From Escherichia phage Greed, in sequence record KX534337: a DNA stretch of 60,042 nucleotides; one strand, given 5' to 3'. Position numbers and translations under genes: made by a program. Positions 3,135-13,312 of this stretch are shown in pieces (position 1 is the first letter of the stretch; each line of letters begins with the position of its first letter). Below the pieces are notes generated by a model. The model did not search any database. It was not told where the DNA came from and saw only the letters and a program-made list of their open reading frames with translations.

Positions 3135-3602
3135 TTATTGGATTGAACCGCGATCAATTAACCATTGTTTCGCGTGCGCCTTAAAGATAATGCGGTAGTC
3201 ATCGAGACTAATTTCCGCGCGGATGGAATCTTTAACTTCATACCACTGCCATTCACCATTACTGAAGACAACCGGATTAAGCGGTAGAACGACCTTCCAT
3301 CCTTTACGTTCTATTTTATACATCAGAACTGGATATCTGCCAAGCTCTTTAGCAGATTGGACAGTCTGCTTCCACCATGTGTTTACTTGTGGCGTAGCAT
3401 GGTTTTTTACTTCAACCGCATGGTGGCATGTATTGCTGATATCACAACCACCGACAGCACTTTGATTCTGGTTTCGCTGAGCAATAGGTTTTTCCGGTAA
3501 CTGCATCCCCAGCTCTGCGTAGATTTCGGCATAAATTGCATTAAAGAAATCACATACTTCCCGCTCACCGCGTTGACCTTTAGCGCGAATATTTACTGCC
3601 AT
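3135..3602 (-). CDS. Putative PD-(D/E)xK nuclease (Holliday-junction-resolvase-like)
   Basis: 155 aa; KGQRGEREV...GGCDIS...VEVKN resembles the Hjc/PD-(D/E)xK core; assignment by motif only. Confidence 0.4.
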   Translation of the reverse strand: MAVNIRAKGQRGEREVCDFFNAIYAEIYAELGMQLPEKPIAQRNQNQSAVGGCDISNTCHHAVEVKNHATPQVNTWWKQTVQSAKELGRYPVLMYKIERKGWKVVLPLNPVVFSNGEWQWYEVKDSIRAEISLDDYRIIFKAHAKQWLIDRGSIQ

Positions 3603-3603
3603 T

Positions 3604-3906
3604 TCAAATCTCCTTCAAAGACTCACCAATAATCCGTTTAATTTTACACAGTCTGCGAACTTGAGTAAAGAACGCTCCGTTTTTCCAAGGTACGCCAAAA
3701 TCTCCGGTTGTGATTGGTTGCATAAAACCGGGAAGAACAATGCTAGCGCTGGCTGTAACTCCATCCGGTTTATCGTTAATAGTGATAATATAGTCTTCGT
3801 CCATTTTACTCATGATGCAACCAGACTCGACATCCGTCCCCATATAACGCACTTGCACAGACCATCCTGATTGTGACAGGTGCTGTTTAAACTCTTCATA
3901 TGTCAT
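3604..3906 (-). CDS. Hypothetical protein (100 aa)
   Basis: ORF tightly packed after 3135..3602; no motif recognised. Confidence 0.45.
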   Translation of the reverse strand: MTYEEFKQHLSQSGWSVQVRYMGTDVESGCIMSKMDEDYIITINDKPDGVTASASIVLPGFMQPITTGDFGVPWKNGAFFTQVRRLCKIKRIIGESLKEI

Positions 3907-4640: not shown

Positions 4641-4846
4641 TTACCCCTTAAGTTTTGAATCATTCTATCGCAGGCAGCTTTTACAGAAGAGTTCTGCCAG
4701 TCTTCTTCAATTTGTGAAGGTTCTTCAGGCGAATAAGCAGCACTAATTAAACACTGATTATAACCTTCAATATAAGCCTGTTTTGCGGTATCTACTATTG
4801 CTTGTAAAGCAATATTGAATAATTGTTCAGACATTTTACACCTCAT
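4637..4846 (-). CDS. Hypothetical protein (69 aa)
   Basis: Small ORF translationally coupled to 4323..4640. Confidence 0.45.
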   Translation of the reverse strand: MRCKMSEQLFNIALQAIVDTAKQAYIEGYNQCLISAAYSPEEPSQIEEDWQNSSVKAACDRMIQNLRGK

Positions 4847-5061
4847 AACAGAATTGTATATACATTTTGAAGATACCCGTAACTATATGTCGAGCGAACG
4901 CGCTTTACTTTAACAATACCGCGGCTTTCCAAAATACGGATACGATTACTCACATAACCTTTACTGCGTTTAATCTTTTTAGCCATATCTTTAATACTGT
5001 AACGGTTGGAGCGTAAAAGGTCTAACAAGTAAGGACCATGATAGGAACCAATAAAGACCAT
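4843..5061 (-). CDS. Small DNA-binding protein (winged-helix/HTH-like), 72 aa
   Basis: ATG at 5061..5059 with GAGG RBS; SIKDMAKKIKRSKGYVSNRIRILESRGIV resembles an HTH; the track ORF start at 5235 lacks an RBS. Confidence 0.4.
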   Translation of the reverse strand: MVFIGSYHGPYLLDLLRSNRYSIKDMAKKIKRSKGYVSNRIRILESRGIVKVKRVRSTYSYGYLQNVYTILL

Positions 5062-5069
5062 TTTATACC

Positions 5070-5144
5070 TCACAGAATGTACATAAACCAGAAATAACCA
5101 GCTACAAAAATAGCACCCGCAAATAATTTTAAAAGCTCGAACAT
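5070..5144 (-). CDS. Possible 24-aa hydrophobic micro-protein
   Basis: ATG at 5144..5142 preceded by GGAGGG; encodes MFELLKLFAGAIFVAGYFWFMYIL, a single predicted transmembrane helix; stop lies 6 nt before the next start. Confidence 0.25.
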   Translation of the reverse strand: MFELLKLFAGAIFVAGYFWFMYIL

Positions 5145-5243
5145 TGTTCCCTCCGTTAACTTTATGCTGTAAGTATAGCAGGACTTGAGATGTATGCAAC
5201 AACTTTAGACTTGAAATGCATCTATAAAATAGCACGATTTGCC

Positions 5244-5272
5244 TTTACATCTGATCAGTCTAACTGTACTAT
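5244..5272 (+). promoter_or_regulatory. Putative promoter (TTTACA, 17 bp, TACTAT) with GATC in spacer
   Basis: -35 TTTACA, 17-bp spacer containing GATCAGTCT, -10 TACTAT, about 30 nt upstream of the 5303 start. Confidence 0.35.
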
Positions 5273-5302
5273 TAACTCATAAGCAAAACGGAGGATTACA
5301 AA

Positions 5303-5527
5303 ATGGTCATGCTGAATAAAGTATATAGCACAATGGGCGCGGATTATAAAGTTGTACGTCACCCGCGTACTGGCAAATTTGAAGCATATATCCGTCCAAT
5401 GGGTGAAGGTTGGATGTATTACGGTACTTATGACGACGCTGAGCAAGCTTATGAAGAAGCGGAAAGTGCAGCGGAAGCATCCGAAATTATGGCAAGGTAC
5501 GACGTCGATGATTACTATCTCAACTAA
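5303..5527 (+). CDS. Hypothetical acidic protein (74 aa), lone plus-strand gene in the minus-strand arm
   Basis: GGAGG RBS 8 nt upstream; acidic C-terminal half (14 Asp/Glu); own promoter-like element. Confidence 0.4.
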   Translation: MVMLNKVYSTMGADYKVVRHPRTGKFEAYIRPMGEGWMYYGTYDDAEQAYEEAESAAEASEIMARYDVDDYYLN

Positions 5528-5553
5528 CAATAAAGAGCCTTTCGGCCCTTTAT

Positions 5554-7890
5554 TTATTTGCTTAAGTCTTTGAAAACACTCTCAATTGACTCGTCTATAT
5601 ACCATCCCAACCCCCTGAAATTACGCTTCAATGCATCCTCACGCGTAACCGGAACAAGCGCGCCCATGTCTACAAGTTGTTTGATAGTGAGGTCTGTTGC
5701 CGTACCTGCTCCCATCCTGTGATTCTTGAATGCTGCTAACCCGTAGGTTCTGCGTGTGATAGTTGCCTTCGGAATAATACCGTCAACTCGCAGCTCCTTA
5801 CGGTCACATGCAATTTTACCGCCAAGATAGTCTTTGCAAACCTGACAGATAGCCTTCACACGCGTTTCATCATCACCACCGATAGTACCTTTTTCCCATG
5901 CGTTGATCATAATGTCCTGTCCATGCGTGACAAAATCTACCGCCCATTGCATGTGATTGGGTTGAACGACAGGATTGATCCAGTTTTCCCCCACTGCTAA
6001 CAGGGATGCAAGACGCAGAGCTTTAAGGTGGGCACGGTTCCACGGCTGACGGATAGCTTCGTCTTTAGTTGCGTTAATGTGTTCATCACATAACAAGTTA
6101 AACTCCCGTTCAATCCTTTCCGCTTCAGGGCTTAACTGGACGGTAACGGTCTGGAACTTCGCCATTGTCACTAACGTGTGGTTAACGAGATGGCACACCA
6201 TGTCCTTTAATTGCTGAGGCATTGTGATTTCAGGATTCTCGTTTGCAGGAACTCGATCCCCTTCATATTGCACAATGTGGAAACGGGACAAGAAACCGTC
6301 TTCCATCATTTCACGTGTTAACGCTTCAAAGAATGTGTCCGGTGTTGTTTCGCCCAAAACGCTGAACGCCACCCCTTCCATTGTCTTGGTATTATTAGCC
6401 TTATCAGAATATCCAATACCGCCAACAACATCCATCGCACCAGATTTTTGATACACATCTGTAATAGTTTGCTTCAAGGTGTAGTTCGCAGTGCCTGGCT
6501 GAGCTGTCGCCATACCTTTAATGGTTTTACCAAACTCACCGTTAATATTCACAAACGAAGTATGATCCGCAAAACTTTTACGCAAGGCAGGACCGGAAGC
6601 ATAGTTAGTCATGTCTACAAATTCATGCACTTGCGGTAATTGCTCGCCTACTTGCTTACAGATATAACTGGGCCCAGCGTGAAGCATTTCTTTACCCACA
6701 CCTGATCGGGCAATAAGGACAAAGTAACCGTTCAGCCCTGTGTTGGTGATAGTATTCCACACCTTGCCACATACGCCGGATAAGAATGCTAAAGATGCAG
6801 TGATTGCAATTTCTTTCACCGGACGCTGCGATGCTTTGTAGATATACTTCGCAAGCTCACCAGCAAGTCCCGGCGGCCATTCAATAGCTGTTGCATCAAT
6901 GGACGTGCTTTCTGCAACTACTATTTCACCGGAAGGGCTGACTGTGGTTACAGGCATTTCCGTTACCTGCTGCATTGCACTGTGTGCGGCTTGCATACGG
7001 GCAGCGTAATCCCGCGCCAGCGCCGCTACGTTTTCCTGGGCAATACGCTCACGCTCCATGCGACCGCGACACATACGCAAACAACGGTCAATATGAACAT
7101 TGTTCTTATTAGCCTTTTCACGTTTGCCCAGTGCACTATAACGGAACAGACGACGACATTGCTCATTACTTTCTGTGTAAAATGCATACATGGAAATAAG
7201 GGCAAGGTCTGCTTCAGACTGGGAAGGGAATCCCATTTCAACCCATTCACCATTGAAGAGGCGTGCATACTTATCGCCGTTGTCCGCTTCAAGTGCACGC
7301 TGGTGAATAGTTGCATCGTCTTCTACCGGATCTTTTTCTACCAGTTCGATCTCATATGTCTTGCGCTGAAGATCAATTTCATTCACAAGCATAGTAAGAT
7401 AATGATCACGTTCTGCAACTGGTTTGTTATAGACAGGATTACCCGTGCAGATAATAAAACGCTCCTGACTATAAACCTCGACACCATCACGTCGGCGACC
7501 TTTACCGATGTTCCCTCTTAACCACAGGTGGACGCCCAAGCCTGAGCGACTTACTTCGGTGTAAGTATCGAACGCGGTCATGATCTGTTCAAAGCGGCGC
7601 AACTGTTCCGGCGTCGTGTGCTTCTTGGGATCAGGTTCATTGGTTGCGTTCTTCACATCCAGGTCGATGCAGGTGAACGGGTCTTGCGCAGTAAGCACGA
7701 AGCCAATATAAGGTTTGTTGAAATGAGCGGCGCAACCTTTAGCAGATTCAAACGTCATAAGCATATCCGGATCGGTAACGTCCGCCGCCATCAAACGCCC
7801 GATATCGTTGTCCCATACAAGAGGCTTTTTATCCGCATCGGCGACCGCCCATTGTGGGAAACCTTTAATTTCAGCGGGAAACAGTTCCAT
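5554..7890 (-). CDS. DNA primase-polymerase/helicase (prim-pol N-terminus, D5/P4-like NTPase C-terminus)
   Basis: 778 aa; N-terminal archaeo-eukaryotic-primase-like motif GLGVHLWLRG; central P-loop-like ARSGVGKE; large size and position typical of phage primase-helicases. Confidence 0.65.
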   Translation of the reverse strand: MELFPAEIKGFPQWAVADADKKPLVWDNDIGRLMAADVTDPDMLMTFESAKGCAAHFNKPYIGFVLTAQDPFTCIDLDVKNATNEPDPKKHTTPEQLRRFEQIMTAFDTYTEVSRSGLGVHLWLRGNIGKGRRRDGVEVYSQERFIICTGNPVYNKPVAERDHYLTMLVNEIDLQRKTYEIELVEKDPVEDDATIHQRALEADNGDKYARLFNGEWVEMGFPSQSEADLALISMYAFYTESNEQCRRLFRYSALGKREKANKNNVHIDRCLRMCRGRMERERIAQENVAALARDYAARMQAAHSAMQQVTEMPVTTVSPSGEIVVAESTSIDATAIEWPPGLAGELAKYIYKASQRPVKEIAITASLAFLSGVCGKVWNTITNTGLNGYFVLIARSGVGKEMLHAGPSYICKQVGEQLPQVHEFVDMTNYASGPALRKSFADHTSFVNINGEFGKTIKGMATAQPGTANYTLKQTITDVYQKSGAMDVVGGIGYSDKANNTKTMEGVAFSVLGETTPDTFFEALTREMMEDGFLSRFHIVQYEGDRVPANENPEITMPQQLKDMVCHLVNHTLVTMAKFQTVTVQLSPEAERIEREFNLLCDEHINATKDEAIRQPWNRAHLKALRLASLLAVGENWINPVVQPNHMQWAVDFVTHGQDIMINAWEKGTIGGDDETRVKAICQVCKDYLGGKIACDRKELRVDGIIPKATITRRTYGLAAFKNHRMGAGTATDLTIKQLVDMGALVPVTREDALKRNFRGLGWYIDESIESVFKDLSK

Positions 7891-7896
7891 ATTTAA

Positions 7897-8100
7897 TTAA
7901 GACCTCCGACGCTTATCGCCTTGCATCTTTTCCAGGACGGGTTCTGCTAATGAACGTTTATAGATGTACACGCTACCGATTTTAATAGCGCCGGGAATGC
8001 ATTCGCGCATTCTGGAGAGCTTAAATTTTGAAATACCGAACTGGTTTTCAATTTCGGTAGTTGTTATATAGTTGTGATTAAATTCTTCGACGTGGGTCAT
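7897..8100 (-). CDS. Small HTH DNA-binding protein (AlpA/excisionase-like)
   Basis: 67 aa; ITTTEIENQFGISKFKLSRM resembles a helix-turn-helix; basic C-terminus. Confidence 0.4.
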   Translation of the reverse strand: MTHVEEFNHNYITTTEIENQFGISKFKLSRMRECIPGAIKIGSVYIYKRSLAEPVLEKMQGDKRRRS

Positions 8101-8161
8101 AGCTCCTCCTTTGTCCGCACACTATACACAGATAAGAGGAGCCATTGCAATGCGTTTTGCG

Positions 8162-8908
8162 TTACAGGATATGGGGGCAATAATATTTATCCTTAACAAA
8201 CTGAAAAACTTCTTCAGGTGTGCGGTCATTACGAAGTTCAATCATATGATTGTCCAGCCATGCTAAACTCTCCTCAGCCTTATCTCTATTATTAAAGTGC
8301 AATAGCTTTGAAGGTGTATCGCCAGGAAGGGTAACTTCAATACAAAATGAACCTGTTTCTAAATGCGTTATGTTGCAAGTCGGCCAAACGCCGCGGTTTT
8401 CCCATACAGAAGGCGCATCCTCAAATCTACATGAGCTATACCATTTATTGCGAAGAGATGTGATCTCCTTACTTGTTAACGGGGCGCCCTTAACCCTTTC
8501 ATGCTCCTCCAGCCAGGCTTTAAATTTTGGGTTAGGTTTGCGCCCCGGCTTCCCTCCTTTCGCCTTTGCGCTTTCTTTAAACGCTTGCTCGTATGGGTCT
8601 GATCCCTTGCCCATGTGGTAATTGAATTTGCCCGTATAGCTGCGAAGCTCTTTGGCGTCCAGTTCATGTCCCAGCTTATCGCTCACCCATGCAAGGAAAG
8701 CTTCCCGCTCTGCATCCAGCTTTCCCGCTTTCGGTCTTACAGATTTTTTAACTGGCTGCTCCACATCCTCGTTGAAGTAATCTTCCACCATAGCAAGCGC
8801 CTGTGATTTGGTTGGTGCACCACGCAACCGTGAGCACGCTTGCACAACCCAAGCCGCGAAGCACATATCCTTAACCACAGTCTTTGAGGTAATAATTTCT
8901 TCACTCAT
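8162..8908 (-). CDS. Hypothetical protein (248 aa)
   Basis: Long ORF with no recognised motif. Confidence 0.5.
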   Translation of the reverse strand: MSEEIITSKTVVKDMCFAAWVVQACSRLRGAPTKSQALAMVEDYFNEDVEQPVKKSVRPKAGKLDAEREAFLAWVSDKLGHELDAKELRSYTGKFNYHMGKGSDPYEQAFKESAKAKGGKPGRKPNPKFKAWLEEHERVKGAPLTSKEITSLRNKWYSSCRFEDAPSVWENRGVWPTCNITHLETGSFCIEVTLPGDTPSKLLHFNNRDKAEESLAWLDNHMIELRNDRTPEEVFQFVKDKYYCPHIL

Positions 8909-8989
8909 AATCCACCTATACGCGTAGAAAGAAAGTTAATCATATAACAAAGTTTTTGTAATCGCAAAACCTTCGCAAAACTTTGTCTT

Positions 8990-9260
8990 TCCTGCATTAT
9001 ATTAAACGATAGTGCTAGTGGCCAGCATAGTGGCATCACCGCTTATAGTGCGCCGTTACTGGCTTTGCTATAGTGAGCCACTATACGCTCACTATACACT
9101 AATAACTAATTTTATTTTATTTAGTGGTAATAAAGTTTTGGGGTTTTGGGGGAGACCCCTATATATCCCGGAAAAAACAAAGAAATAGTAGTAGTAGTGA
9201 AAAACATAGTGAAATGCCACTATCTCACTATCACTACTAATTTAGTGTAAATCATGGGGG
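8990..9260. repeat. Iteron-like cluster of ATAGTG/CACTAT repeats
   Basis: At least 12 copies of (C/T)ATAGTG or its complement CACTAT within about 270 bp of non-coding DNA. Confidence 0.55.
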
Positions 9261-9299
9261 TGTCTATGTACCAAAAACCTAAAACTTTCAGTCAACAGA

Positions 9300-9420
9300 C
9301 TAAAAACGGATAGAAACTAAAAGTTAATAAGTAATACCATAAATATATATAAAATAAGGATTTATTAATAATGTATATAGTACCTATTGGTATTATTTGA
9401 ATGTTTTTGGGTCTGCAACA
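9300..9420. promoter_or_regulatory. AT-rich tract adjacent to the iterons (possible DNA unwinding element)
   Basis: About 120 bp of high A+T content (for example AAATATATATAAAATAAGGATTTATTAATAATGTATATAG) with no ORF. Confidence 0.35.
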
Positions 9421-9612
9421 AAAAGTCGCAAAACTCACAAAACCTGAACGGATGCAGATCAAAAACGAGAAGTCAAGTGCTTTTGAGGGAAATTTATTGA
9501 ACTATTGTGATCGGAAGGTATATCAAGCTATAATGCGCTTAATCGCGGGATATTGGAGGAGGACTTTATTGCGCGGTTGACCGGACCAGTAGGAGGGCTG
9601 GCCCGGAGTAGT

Positions 9613-9945
9613 TTAGAGCTGTACAGGTATGAAGTGGGCTAATGTGTCGTCGGACATGATACCCGACAATTTTTCGCTTACCCATTCGGACCAAATGCTA
9701 TCCGGTTCCTGGCGGTGCACAAACCAGATTTCGGATGTGCCTTCTTTGCGCATCGGCTGCACTTCTACAAGGAACTTGTCCTGCATAAGGCGGGTGAAGC
9801 ATACGCTAGTCATTGGAACTGGCTTTTCGTGTTTATTGTAATAAGGAGTCAGTAATTTATTTCCGAAGTTGGCAACTTCATAAACTGTTCCTTTGCGAAG
9901 ACCTCTGATGTCCGTGTAAGAGCGGATAAATGTTTTCATGTTCAC
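9613..9945 (-). CDS. Hypothetical protein (110 aa)
   Basis: ORF with RBS-like GGAG upstream; no motif. Confidence 0.45.
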   Translation of the reverse strand: MNMKTFIRSYTDIRGLRKGTVYEVANFGNKLLTPYYNKHEKPVPMTSVCFTRLMQDKFLVEVQPMRKEGTSEIWFVHRQEPDSIWSEWVSEKLSGIMSDDTLAHFIPVQL

Positions 9946-9988
9946 TCCTAGGCTCCCGCAGAAGCCCGTTGGTTGATGTGGTTATAGA

Positions 9989-10648
9989 TTATGCGTCCAG
10001 TCCGTTGTATTTGCGCCAAGCGTAGAACTGAATGGCGACCGTTGTCCCGTTGTAAGAAGGCATTGCAGCTTTCATTTCTTTCAGCTCCGGCGTGCGGCCA
10101 AGTTCAGCTAAAAGTTTGTCGCCCATTGCCCACACTTCGGCGGTTTTTCCTTTCAGAGGCTTGCGAGCGCCATTTTTGAAATCACAGCGAGCAGCTTTTG
10201 CATCCTGTTTTGGCGCGGCAGCTTTTGGCTCTTCAATTTTGATTTCAGAAACCTGCGTGGCAGCTTTTGCATGTTTCATATCTTTCTCTTCCTCCTGCTC
10301 CAGAGCTTCGAGGCAGCTTTTGACAATTTCCGGATTTACCATCGGGCGCAGTACCGAGACGCTGGCAGCTGGCGCGGCGGTCGGTGCCGGTACTTTCTGC
10401 TCCGGCTGCTGCGCTTTTTTATGGTCGCGCAGCACCTGAAGCACTTCCTTCTCGACGATGTAAAAACCGATCTCGTCCTGATGGATTAACTGTTCGTGTG
10501 CGTCGCGTGCAACCTGGCCCCAGCGAGTTTTGAGGGCGCGGCGTGCATTGGTCTTCATGGTGTAACGCATTTTGTCCTGTTCGCGGTGAGTTACTTTAGA
10601 CATGGTATAGCTCCTTTCGTTAATATTAGTTTGCTTATTACTGCCCAC
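9989..10648 (-). CDS. Ala/Lys/Glu-rich protein with conserved C-terminal domain (paralog of 53058..53885)
   Basis: 219 aa (alternative start at 10603); central KAAAP-rich low-complexity region; C-terminus VWAMGDKLLAELG...YAWRKYNGL aligns with AWALMDQISATLG...YARWKKFNGV of 53058..53885. Confidence 0.5.
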   Translation of the reverse strand: MGSNKQTNINERSYTMSKVTHREQDKMRYTMKTNARRALKTRWGQVARDAHEQLIHQDEIGFYIVEKEVLQVLRDHKKAQQPEQKVPAPTAAPAASVSVLRPMVNPEIVKSCLEALEQEEEKDMKHAKAATQVSEIKIEEPKAAAPKQDAKAARCDFKNGARKPLKGKTAEVWAMGDKLLAELGRTPELKEMKAAMPSYNGTTVAIQFYAWRKYNGLDA

Positions 10649-10676
10649 CGTAATGATGAGCAGTGTATAAGAAAAC

Positions 10677-10925
10677 TTATTGCACGATTGCTACGAAATC
10701 GGCGGTTGCGATATCCATGCTTGCGAAAGCAACGATGCCATAGTCGGTGTCGTTTTCGGCGTTAAACGCTTTGAGGAACTGCTGTACCGCTGCTTTATGG
10801 TTAAGCGTTACGTCGATAGCATAGTCCCAGCTATAGACTTTGCGCTTGCCAAAACCTTTAACTGCAATGCGTGCGCTTTTGGTGTTAGTTGGTGCCAAAA
10901 ATTTGGTGACGATAGAAGTAGCCAT
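10677..10925 (-). CDS. Hypothetical protein (82 aa), first gene of the leftward arm
   Basis: ORF with GAGGA RBS; immediately downstream of a promoter-like element. Confidence 0.45.
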   Translation of the reverse strand: MATSIVTKFLAPTNTKSARIAVKGFGKRKVYSWDYAIDVTLNHKAAVQQFLKAFNAENDTDYGIVAFASMDIATADFVAIVQ

Positions 10926-10954
10926 GATGTAATCCTCGTTTGTTTAAGTTGACT

Positions 10955-10984
10955 TATTATTGCCCAGTCAGATCAACTAGGCAA
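10955..10984 (-). promoter_or_regulatory. Putative leftward sigma70-like promoter
   Basis: Minus-strand TTGCCT, 17-bp spacer (contains GATCTGACT), AATAAT, about 25 nt upstream of the 10925 start. Confidence 0.35.
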
Positions 10985-11349
10985 GATATAAATCACTTAA
11001 TTTGTACTAAATCGTATTCCTTGTAAATGTCGCTAATGTACATATCGAACTGACCCATTAAGAAGATTTCGGCCTCCTCCCAGCTTGGGCAGATACATAA
11101 CCAGCTATTTTACCGGACGCGAGTTCCACTAATTTGAATTCCATGATGCAACCCTTAATGTGGTTAAGCAGTATTGCTTTGTTGAAGTAATAATAGCCTT
11201 GCATCGTGATATTGAATAGGCCAAAAGTGCTCTTTTAGAATTGTTTTGCATCTAGTGAAAAATACGCTTGCCCTGCATGTTTAGCACTAAGGGCCTAACT
11301 AACATCACATTATCTGGAGTATTCGCACGGGCACACACATGCTTATAAG

Positions 11350-11440
11350 GTGTGCCGGATCGACCAGGGGCATCCGGGTCCTGCGTGTGCGGAACCTACC
11401 AGGTGGGAGCAGCTCCCGCGTGTGCCGGAAATACCAGGGG
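11350..11440. repeat. Three imperfect GC-rich direct repeats (about 35-bp period)
   Basis: GTGTGCCGGATCGACCAGGGG (11350), GTGTGCGGAACCTACCAGGTGG (11385), GTGTGCCGGAAATACCAGGGG (11420); an inverted arm GGCACACAC lies just upstream. Confidence 0.6.
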
Positions 11441-11493
11441 CGCGCGAGCCCATGCACTTTACAAAATATTTTTATAAAAAGTGCAAAAAGGTG

Positions 11494-11522
11494 TAGACAC
11501 ATGATCGGTCTAGCACTACTAT
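11494..11522 (+). promoter_or_regulatory. Putative rightward promoter (TAGACA, 17 bp, TACTAT)
   Basis: -35 TAGACA, spacer containing CATGATCGGTCT, -10 TACTAT; a near-identical element recurs at 12337..12365. Confidence 0.4.
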
Positions 11523-11573
11523 ATACACATACCGCAAGGGTACTACAAATCAACTAATTTACGGGGGTACAAA

Positions 11574-11837
11574 ATGGTCCGCATCCTGGAACGTTATAAA
11601 AACGAAGCTACTGGCGCTATTGCATTCAAACGTATGTTAGTAAAACAAATCGACGGTTTATTCCGTGTTGTTAAAGAAGTCGATTACGGCAACGGCGCAG
11701 GGGTAAGCACCACTATCGTCCCGGGCATTAAAGCGTATAAAACTTTAAAAGGCGCCGAGAAAGCCTTAGCCGCCTGGAAACCTGCTCGTTATCAAATGTC
11801 CCGTGTCGAAGGGCTTATGCAGGAAGGTAAGATCTAA
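11574..11837 (+). CDS. Hypothetical protein (87 aa), first gene of the rightward arm
   Basis: ATG preceded by ACGGGGGTACAAA; the same leader/RBS is found upstream of 12399. Confidence 0.5.
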   Translation: MVRILERYKNEATGAIAFKRMLVKQIDGLFRVVKEVDYGNGAGVSTTIVPGIKAYKTLKGAEKALAAWKPARYQMSRVEGLMQEGKI

Positions 11838-11905
11838 GTTTGTTTATACAATGGGCATTAATACAGTGCCCATTAATAAGCTAACTAATCATATCGAGGT
11901 ATATT

Positions 11906-12190
11906 ATGTCCATCGTCACTATGTCGTTCTTCGACCATTGCAATAACGAAAAACAAATTATCGTGAACCTGCAAAAAGGATCTGTTGTCGCACGCAATGC
12001 TAACCGCCAATGCATCGCGCTAACCGATTTTGCTTTCCGCCTTAACGTGGACAACACCACCGCCAAAAATATCGTTCACGATACAGCGTTGGAAGCTGCT
12101 CACGCTGCGAAGGATAAAGGTATCCGCGACGCACGCAAAATCATGCACAAGGCGCTCGGCATCACGTTCTTCGTTGGGATTAAGGGGTAA
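11906..12190 (+). CDS. Hypothetical protein (94 aa)
   Basis: GAGGT RBS 8 nt upstream of ATG. Confidence 0.5.
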   Translation: MSIVTMSFFDHCNNEKQIIVNLQKGSVVARNANRQCIALTDFAFRLNVDNTTAKNIVHDTALEAAHAAKDKGIRDARKIMHKALGITFFVGIKG

Positions 12191-12195
12191 CTACT

Positions 12196-12339
12196 ATGTC
12201 ACGCAAATACACGCTTACACGCGCACAGCACGCGTTATTATTGCAGGTTATGCGCATGGAGTACGAAGAGACTACATGGGCGCAGGCTATGCAGACAGGG
12301 CGCGAGTTCTACGCGCAACTAATAGCACAAAATGCCTAG
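12196..12339 (+). CDS. Possible small protein (47 aa)
   Basis: ATG 5 nt after the upstream stop with AAGGGG RBS; open to TAG at 12337; below the ORF-track length cutoff. Confidence 0.3.
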   Translation: MSRKYTLTRAQHALLLQVMRMEYEETTWAQAMQTGREFYAQLIAQNA

Positions 12340-12365
12340 ACAACATGATCGGTCTGGTGGATACT
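12337..12365 (+). promoter_or_regulatory. Second copy of the TAGACA/CATGATCGGTCT promoter-like element
   Basis: TAGACA, 17-bp spacer with CATGATCGGTCT, GATACT; followed by the conserved ACGGGGGTAAACAAA leader before the 12399 start. Confidence 0.4.
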
Positions 12366-12398
12366 ACACACATCAACCAAACAACGGGGGTAAACAAA

Positions 12399-12626
12399 AT
12401 GCGTAGTTTCAAATGTGTAAGCGTAAATGCTACTGGTAACGGTCTGTTCACGGCAGGTAATGTATATGACTTCAACATGGAAAGTTATAAAGACACAACG
12501 CTTACAGGTGTAATGTTCGGTGGCGCTCGTGTCGTTCGCTGCCATTTAAACAAGAACACGGAAAATAAATATACCCTTATCAGTCGCTACACGGGCGAGC
12601 CGTTAGCTGTGTTCCATGCAGCTTAA
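12399..12626 (+). CDS. Hypothetical protein (75 aa; track ORF starts at 12030)
   Basis: ATG at 12399 has the conserved leader/RBS shared with 11574; the longer upstream extension overlaps other genes and lacks an RBS. Confidence 0.45.
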   Translation: MRSFKCVSVNATGNGLFTAGNVYDFNMESYKDTTLTGVMFGGARVVRCHLNKNTENKYTLISRYTGEPLAVFHAA

Positions 12627-12702
12627 GCTATAACGCACACAGCGCCGCGCTAGTGAGCTAATGTACATAGGTAATGGTAATGCATTAGCTCGGGCGAAAC
12701 AG

Positions 12703-12750
12703 GCGCACAGCGTCGCGCACAGCTCGCACAGCGCACACAGACCCACGCAG
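12703..12750. repeat. Tandem GCGCACAGC-like repeats in a 430-bp non-coding region
   Basis: GCGCACAGC, GCGCACAGC, GCACAGC, GCACACAG in tandem; strongly C+A-rich on the plus strand. Confidence 0.45.
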
Positions 12751-13060
12751 GCCCAGCCGCGCAACCCGACCCATCCTTTTCCAGGTACTTGGATCGCTGG
12801 GGCGTGCCCTGTCTATCCTGATAGTAAGTCCTTGCCTAAATCTCACCTGTCACATCCCTATCCACCTACATCCATGACCCCACCTACCTTCTTTTTGAAT
12901 ATATTGCGCTCATCCTTTCTAAATATATGGATTTTGGTAGTAAATTCTGAGTCGTCAACGTATAATTCGTCTTGTAGCTGCTCCATAGCTACCATCTTTA
13001 AGCGGATGCAACCAATTTCTATCAATTCACACCTGTTTTTAGAGCATCAAGGAGGTATTT

Positions 13061-13312
13061 ATGTGCGACACCAGTGCAAGCGCTACACCCAGCACCTCCA
13101 GCAATGTGGTTACAGAGGTAAATGCAATGCGATTAGGTCCATATCGCGGCTATTATGGTCGTGCTGCATGGAATGACGCTACTCAACGTTTTGAAGGCTG
13201 GATTATCTGCCCGGAACGTGTTAAATTTCACTCCGTAAAAGAGAAAAATATCGTTCTTAATTTTCAAAAATGTGTGACTAAATATGTAGAGGAGCAAGAA
13301 GAATGCGTGTAG
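13061..13312 (+). CDS. Hypothetical protein (83 aa)
   Basis: Strong RBS AAGGAGG 7 nt upstream of ATG. Confidence 0.5.
   Translation: MCDTSASATPSTSSNVVTEVNAMRLGPYRGYYGRAAWNDATQRFEGWIICPERVKFHSVKEKNIVLNFQKCVTKYVEEQEECV

Follow-up and report, generated by a model that had tools for sequence, protein, structure and literature searches.

What kind of element is a short sequence that recurs, nearly unchanged, between the -35 and -10 hexamers of four promoter-like sites in a coliphage genome? The question arises from one such site, at positions 11,494 to 11,522 of a 60,042-nucleotide stretch of Escherichia phage Greed (sequence record KX534337; the whole of this analysed stretch is called the window here). 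The original prediction, made from the letters alone, listed three plus-strand copies of a promoter-like element with a GATC-containing spacer of 17 bp, along with a leftward candidate that also has GATC in its spacer, and all four are present with exactly the coordinates and sequences that it gave. It proposed a co-regulated promoter class, possibly sensitive to Dam methylation or bound by a phage regulator. As argued below, the shared sequence has the look of a site to which a phage regulator binds, more than that of a switch operated by Dam methylation. If so, the sites make up a promoter family of an ordinary kind, marked by an operator-like sequence, that appears to be undescribed in the literature searched.

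Four promoter-like sites flanking a divergent control region

The genome is of the Seuratvirus (Queuovirinae) type, that is, a CAjan-like coliphage of a group with 7-deazaguanine DNA, and the gene set of the window is that of relatives annotated with DpdA, QueC, QueD, QueE, and FolE. The neighbourhood of the sites is 92-97% identical to CAjan, KS_A8, KurtStettler, slur01, and about 30 other Seuratvirus members, and the gene order agrees with that of the complete relatives. A leftward block that comprises the replication and 7-deazaguanine genes occupies 42.6-60 kb and wraps to 1-10.9 kb, and a rightward block (11.6-42.6 kb) begins with small uncharacterized genes, followed by the lysis, packaging, and structural genes; a 650-bp intergenic region (10926-11573) separates the two diverging blocks. 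In the Nonagvirus 9g, the equivalent region was assigned divergent promoters, Pl and Pr, by Kulikov et al. (PMC4276943); for Seuratvirus promoters, transcription starts, expression, and binding, nothing was found in the literature searched. The four promoter-like sites, denoted here c1 to c4, flank this divergent early control region (Table 1).

Table 1 Promoter-like sites, their cores, adjoining elements, and downstream genes in the window
Feature	Position	Strand	Sequence and remarks
Upstream block of c1	5228..5243	+	AATAGCACGATTTGCC; directly 5' of the -35 hexamer; common to c3 and other promoters of the group
c1	5244..5272	+	TTTACA tctGATCAGTCTaactg TACTAT; followed after 30 nt by the ATG of the AP2-like gene
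c1 core	5252..5261	+	TGATCAGTCT
Gene for 74-aa AP2-like protein	5303..5527	+	Solitary rightward gene, convergent with the primase gene; downstream of c1
82-aa gene	10677..10925	-	Downstream of c4
c4	10984..10956	-	TTGCCT agtTGATCTGACTgggc AATAAT; leftward promoter-like site
c4 core	10975..10966	-	TGATCTGACT
AT-rich UP-element-like stretch	11462..11493	+	5' part of the conserved c2 cassette; mosaic breakpoint just upstream
c2	11494..11522	+	TAGACA catGATCGGTCTagcac TACTAT; main rightward promoter-like site of the divergent region
c2 core	11502..11511	+	TGATCGGTCT
87-aa gene	11574..11837	+	First gene downstream of c2
Upstream block of c3	12321..12336	+	AATAGCACAAAATGCC; inside the coding sequence of a 47-aa ORF
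c3	12337..12365	+	TAGACA acatGATCGGTCTggtg GATACT; internal promoter-like site
c3 core	12346..12355	+	TGATCGGTCT; 1 nt further from the -35 hexamer
75-aa gene	12399..12626	+	Downstream of c3; ATG at 12399

Promoters of the sigma70 type have -35 and -10 hexamers that approach TTGACA and TATAAT, keep A and T at positions -11 and -7, respectively, and stand 16-18 bp apart; c1 to c4 conform to this. Each of c1 to c4 scores 9/12 against the sigma70 consensus with a spacer of 17 bp, the -35 hexamers matching at 4-5 of the 6 positions; all four are correctly oriented, and their -10 hexamers end 24-45 nt before an ATG preceded by a Shine-Dalgarno sequence. The 10-bp sequence TGATCNRWCT, hereafter the core, spans -27/-26 to -18/-17 in the four sites and thus overlaps the polymerase footprint, and its GATC occupies spacer positions 4-7 or 5-8 (-27 to -22), outside the hexamers. 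Relative to c1 and c2, the register of the core against both hexamers is shifted by 1 bp in c3 and c4. The core has no dyad symmetry: c2 and c3 have the arms TAGAC/GTCTA only, which are not kept in variants, and c1 has no arms at all. At c3, the TAG of the -35 hexamer is also the stop codon of the 47-aa ORF (12196-12339). No significant hairpin was predicted for c1 to c3 (z -1.7 to +0.5). An RNA element as the shared feature was rejected, given that an Rfam search over 4800-13200 produced one chance-level match only and that there are no tRNAs.

Enrichment of the core in promoter context

A score of 9/12 alone is not above chance (46 sites in 20 kb versus 40.9 expected), and GATC as such occurs at expectation in the window (217 observed, 205 expected). 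A generic signal of GATC in the spacer was likewise rejected: promoter-like sites with GATC early in the spacer number 8 versus 6.0 expected, and the extended core alone is special. A motif scan of the kind suggested along with the original prediction returned, all in promoter-like context, three exact copies of GATCRGTCT, against 0.42 expected in the 60-kb window (three were reached in 1 of 100 shuffles), and four matches to TGATCNRWCT, against 1.4 expected. The three exact copies are on the plus strand, 3-4 nt past a -35-like hexamer, in 17-bp spacers and upstream of small genes. All 4 TGATCNRWCT matches lie in a sigma70-like context, 2-3 nt past a -35-like hexamer with a 17-bp spacer, a configuration that appeared 0.006 times on average, and at most once, in 1000 dinucleotide shuffles; the copies are paralogues, so c1 to c4 do not count as independent events in this comparison.

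Conservation and loss of the core in related phages

The core was defined from the paralogues in the window, and variation was then counted among orthologous alleles; a MAFFT alignment of the four cassettes misplaced c4, and the comparisons were therefore hand-anchored on the core. Positions that vary among the alleles amount to 2 of 36 in the core as opposed to 11 of 32 in the rest of the spacers (Fisher p 0.004), a difference to which the relatives compared, all 85-97% identical, lend limited weight. TGATC is invariant in every type-A allele, and the following N takes A, C, G, and T. The c1 orthologues in 11 loci keep TGATC-N-GTCT, with A, C, or G as N. The c2 cassette, about 100 bp from the AT-rich stretch to the first ~40 nt of the leader, is nearly invariant in 14 loci and 26 Seuratvirus records, and the sequences on either side of it have been replaced by unrelated ones at mosaic breakpoints. 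Site c4, too, lies between mosaic breakpoints; its conserved stretch begins some 10 nt before the -35 hexamer, and the centre of the site, TGATC-N-G, is invariant in 12 of 13 loci, with T, G, or C as N. When c1 and c4 are compared, hardly anything but the hexamers, the core, and the ribosome-binding region has escaped divergence.

The core has also been lost or altered in several relatives. In Seurat, c4 keeps its hexamers and flanks, and ACTTCAACTTAGT replaces AGTTGATCTGACT. Seurat and WildeMaa share a variant rightward promoter, TAGACA yaGATCArGTCAtg... TACTAT, in which GATC and GTC are kept. In L020, a relative from a gut metagenome, the core is present at c1 and c4, the rightward promoter is without GATC, and c3 has GATGCGTCT. 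Of the two lineages whose AP2 homologue is 56-59% identical, L025 keeps TGATC in the c1 spacer and L027 has an AP2-homologue promoter without GATC; the leftward promoter of both contains GATC-N1-2-GT(T)CT, 7 nt further upstream. TGATCNRWCT is absent from the whole genome of the Nonagvirus 9g, the promoters of which share GTTATAGTA instead. The Hafnia phage yong3 has a type-A c2 with the core, yet no AP2 homologue.

The class of promoter-like sites with a conserved spacer element that had been predicted is borne out by this comparison: the core is above chance, the sites are at the right distance from genes, and the core evolves more slowly than its surroundings. On the strength of these sequence features, c1 to c4 are probably real promoters of a single family.

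A possible operator in the spacer

What the core does is less clear-cut. That it is a protein-binding regulatory site strikes us as nearly an even proposition, and the best explanation of the data as a whole, to which we give similarly tentative credence just short of an even chance, is a set of sigma70-type early promoters co-repressed through the shared core. Host RNA polymerase would read four related promoters of small early genes to the left and right of the control region: c2 would be the main rightward promoter, c3 and c4 would each be a second promoter some hundreds of bases along its arm, and c1 would serve the isolated gene for the AP2-like protein. A trans-acting protein would bind the 10-bp core, TGATCNGWCT, at about -27 to -17 inside the spacer and, by occupying the position of the polymerase, would repress the four promoters together, which could provide for early shut-off and autoregulation. 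The most plausible binder would be the 74-aa AP2-like protein expressed from c1 itself.

The asymmetry of the core and its 1-bp shift against the hexamers fit a bound protein better than a contact with RNA polymerase: polymerase contacts are expected at a fixed register, and a separate protein tolerates shifts, which favours an operator-like site; the GATC-N1-2-GT(T)CT motif that L025 and L027 carry at another offset, in a different promoter, points the same way. The same hexamers also occur with a replaced core (c4 of Seurat, the rightward promoter and c3 of L020). These very cases count against an operator as well, in that the core is dispensable at single promoters. Dyad symmetry is a feature of most phage repressor operators, and the asymmetric core does not have the dyad expected for a dimeric binder. 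Of the E. coli factors considered (IHF, FNR, MetJ, LexA, DnaA, and sigma54), none is known to have a consensus site that fits the core.

The 74-aa protein as a candidate binder

The 74-aa protein is the only product encoded nearby with a DNA-binding-like fold, and we regard its role as the binder of the core as unlikely on balance, albeit the leading candidacy. Its match to the Pfam AP2 family (PF00847) is below threshold (17.3 bits versus a cut-off of 33.3, E 0.006), four AP2 proteins head its sequence matches in the PDB, and its predicted structure (pLDDT 78) is a sheet of three main strands and a helix, the arrangement of the AP2 fold; Foldseek searches with it gave nothing significant. The protein shares the three-stranded sheet plus helix with the AP2/ERF domains (PF00847) of plant ERF/DREB factors, apicomplexan ApiAP2 proteins, and phage HNH homing endonucleases, and also their pattern R..GK(F/W).A.I and W.GT(F/Y)...EEA.AY. 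Unlike them, it stands alone, without a nuclease or any other domain, and remains below the Pfam threshold; several of the base-contacting residues of AtERF1 are not conserved in it. AP2 domains bind short asymmetric sites (6-10 bp) as monomers via the major groove, which suits the asymmetric core.

The distribution of the gene offers another line of evidence. It is present at 96% identity or more in all 33 Seuratvirus records that match, and the c1 core is kept in every Seuratvirus with the gene and in L020, where the protein is 84% identical; in L025 (56% identity), just the TGATC part of it is kept. Both 9g and yong3 lack the gene and have no core at the c1 position, and the gene at the AP2 position in 9g is unrelated. 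This co-occurrence of gene and core is suggestive but imperfect, given the core in c2 of yong3 and the AP2-homologue promoter without GATC in L027. A search of IMG/VR with the 74-aa protein yielded 3 loci only, and the more divergent lineages came from protein look-ups.

L020, Skure, and GottfriedDienst have a second AP2-like gene, encoding 93 aa (Pfam AP2 E 1.9e-6), which follows the primase gene within its leftward operon and so appears to the right of it on the map; it is absent from the window.

Shared descent of the promoter cassettes

The alternative that survives best, and that we rate as somewhat unlikely, is inherited similarity only: one cassette would have been duplicated and recombined, the core would be a remnant, and function would be limited to the 17-bp spacing. 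The four copies are paralogues, so shared descent does account for part of their similarity, and the blocks that they share outside the core bear this out. Directly upstream of the -35 hexamer, c1 and c3 have in common AATAGCAC-N4-TGCC (AATAGCAC-N4-KGCC in degenerate form); c2 and c3 agree not only in the core but also in the leader and in the first bases that would be transcribed; and the ribosome-binding regions of c1 and c4 both read AAACG(G)AGGATTACA ahead of the ATG. Also consistent with a remnant are the losses of the core at single promoters of Seurat, L020, and L027 without visible consequence, and the closeness of the relatives compared, noted above. Descent alone, however, does not readily explain why the non-core positions of the same spacers vary far more than the core, nor why c1 and c4, otherwise diverged to background, have kept 8 of the 9 core bases at about the same offset, nor the related motif at a different offset in L025 and L027.

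The leader shared by c2 and c3 had been included in the original prediction as a further common element. The similarity is real (ACGGGGGTACAAAATG at c2, ACGGGGGTAAACAAAATG at c3), but it belongs to the Shine-Dalgarno region and is not a promoter element. As a regulatory element the leader was rejected, since in relatives it varies with the downstream gene and not with the promoter; nor is it enriched when 2 mismatches are allowed (23 observed versus 18.8 expected).

The block (A)ATAGCAC-N4-KGCC precedes the -35 hexamer of many Seuratvirus-like promoter-like sites, with or without the TGATC core. It is found at 5228-5243, 12321-12336, and 11219-11230 (minus strand) of the window and also in L020, L023, L024, L025, and L027, and is more widespread than the core.

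The palindrome at c4

That the four sites do not form one class is a quite improbable explanation; c4 would then be a separate palindromic operator or hairpin with the TGATCTG centre arising by chance, or some of the sites, notably c3, would be inactive. Site c4 indeed contains an imperfect 25-bp palindrome (10984..10960, minus strand), TTGCCTAGT-N7-ACTGGGCAA, that extends from the -35 hexamer to the base before the -10 hexamer and folds at -13.3 kcal/mol (z -3.6, versus z -1.7 to +0.5 for c1 to c3). In Seurat, the arms of the palindrome are kept by a symmetric change of G to C and C to G, and its centre is replaced. Arguing against a separate class, the TGATC-N-G centre is the part that stays invariant in 12 of the 13 loci while N changes, and the ribosome-binding region is common to c4 and c1; no U-tract follows the hairpin, which is thus not an intrinsic terminator. 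As for c3, the overlap of its -35 hexamer with a stop codon could point to inactivity, as could the allele in L012, where the -10 hexamer reads GGTACT and the key A (-11) is lost. The palindrome is absent from c1 to c3, so c4 may belong to a different regulatory unit, and another protein, dimeric in form, may use it as an operator, whether in addition to or in place of the binder of the core; judged by sequence, the place of c4 among the four is not as firm as that of c1 to c3.

The 82-aa product encoded downstream of c4 is homologous to gp36 of 9g (34% identity), which is labelled 'TetR family transcription regulator' in the 9g record. It was rejected as a regulator, there being no Pfam match and no helix-turn-helix in its predicted fold. 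The AF2 model, a confident one (pLDDT 89), has a beta3-alpha-beta2 topology and weakly resembles RNase H-like domains and the N-terminal domain of HicB.

DNA modification and Dam methylation

Two further explanations concern the chemistry of the DNA. The first, which we hold to be very improbable, makes the use of the promoters, or the binding of a regulator, contingent on whether the GA guanines of the core are 7-deazaguanine (preQ0). In CAjan, preQ0 replaces the G of GA, and so of GATC, and that of GGC (PMC7544227), and the window carries the DpdA/QueC/QueD/QueE/FolE-type gene set. The core has three guanines followed by A, of which GATC supplies two and AGAC, on the opposite strand, the third; another is in the -35 hexamer TAGACA, and preQ0 alters the major groove, which AP2 domains read. 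Set against this, a GA can be expected in any 10-mer, given how frequent this dinucleotide is, and 9g, which also has 7-deazaguanine DNA (Kulikov 2014, PMC4276943), is nevertheless without the core. A combination of the two ideas, in which the core would be the operator of a stand-alone AP2-type factor and either binding or polymerase use would depend on the preQ0 state, is still more improbable. If it were true, the phage could distinguish DNA that is injected or fully modified from newly replicated DNA and time its early shut-off by this, and hypermodified bases would act in gene regulation, not defence evasion. The -35 hexamers and the core both contain modified GA sites and so offer a natural test case for the handling of preQ0 by polymerase and other proteins.

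Control by Dam or SeqA, with the methylation state of the spacer GATC modulating promoter activity, can be given hardly any credence. GATC is the most invariant part of the core, the E. coli host is dam+, and the known Dam-sensitive promoters (IS10 pIN, Mu mom with OxyR, pap with Lrp, and agn43 with OxyR) similarly combine a dam+ host with GATC in the promoter region. In those promoters, however, GATC forms part of one of the two hexamers (-10 or -35) or of a site for a regulator; here it is confined to the spacer, and the GATC of c1 to c4 was not recognized as part of any known methylation-sensitive regulator site. Furthermore, GATC is neither avoided nor enriched genome-wide (217 versus 205), and type-C promoters and c3 of L020 work without GATC, if they work at all. 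Unlike in the Dam-sensitive systems, the G of the site is replaced by preQ0 in this phage group and m6A is scarce: wild-type virion DNA of CAjan contains 83 m6A per million nt versus 865 in a queC mutant, a difference that its authors put down to dPreQ0 inhibiting the adenine methylase (PMC7544227). Were all 217 GATC sites of the window methylated, about 3600 m6A per million nt would be expected, far above the CAjan value. With GATC outside the hexamers, preQ0 at GA, and m6A scarce in CAjan (PMC7544227), the suggested Dam sensitivity is unlikely.

Comparison with known promoter sets

If the sites are sigma70-type early promoters co-repressed through a shared core, the arrangement, judged by analogy, seems familiar in kind: host-type early promoters that share an operator-like sequence in a divergent region. 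As in lambda (PL/PR with OL/OR) and P22, and as proposed for 9g (Pl/Pr; PMC4276943), the divergent region is situated between two long transcription units. In common with the lambdoid sets, there are host sigma70-type promoters, a short repeated sequence at a position that would exclude polymerase, and a small DNA-binding-like protein encoded nearby. Unlike lambdoid operators, which have dyad symmetry and multiple adjacent copies, the core is asymmetric and occurs once per promoter as a candidate site; and unlike in lambdoid phages, there is no helix-turn-helix repressor, integrase, or lysogeny module, the candidate binder being AP2-like. The middle promoters of T4, in which a MotA box accompanies a sigma70 -10 hexamer, are a second parallel, with a phage-specific box that defines a co-regulated class, as the core might do in c1 to c4. 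The box of T4 middle promoters stands at -30, whereas the core of c1 to c4 has its centre near -22 and accompanies a good -35 hexamer; no counterpart of MotA or AsiA was noticed.

As coliphages, Seuratviruses have been isolated widely; both the BASEL collection and the work on 7-deazaguanine DNA include them. A set of early promoters with a common 10-bp core and a candidate AP2-like regulator would be a testable entry to the timing of their early expression, and even if the core proves functionless, the curated promoter map would still be useful for annotation.

Additional features of the control regions

Two promoter-like sites without the core were observed on the minus strand. One of these, denoted Pl' (11190..11230; GCACTTTTGGCC TATTCA-17-TATTAT), has the upstream block and lacks TGATC; the other, TTGCAT-16-TATACT at about 5187-5215, is back-to-back with c1, which makes the c1 locus a second small divergent promoter region. 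Judging by the sequence and the list of ORFs, a small gene between Pl' and c4 (11058-11147, minus strand) seems shortened, with about 29 codons from the ATG at 11147 compared to 70 aa for gp70 of CAjan and 50-55 aa in BASEL relatives. The gene directly downstream of c2 has ~81% DNA identity with one from Wifcevirus myophages (ECML-117, FEC19, WFH, and others), which indicates exchange between unrelated coliphage groups.

Upstream of c2, at a distance of 50-140 bp, three 22-nt direct repeats (GTGTGCCGGAAATACCAGGGGC-like) with an exact spacing of 35 bp occupy 11350-11441, each followed by a different short GC-rich palindrome. CAjan, KS_A8, GottfriedDienst, and SLUR25 have the unit as well, and the divergent region of 9g has three copies of it (L011, 18948-19019); the unit is thus conserved across genera, from Seuratvirus to 9g, and its flanks are not. 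These repeats are candidate iterons of a replication origin or candidate regulator sites. Finally, the relatives with the variant rightward promoter have a GC-rich untranslated stretch of ~270 nt, absent from the window, between that promoter and the first gene (3450-3720 in WildeMaa, L024), which may be a structured leader or a small RNA.
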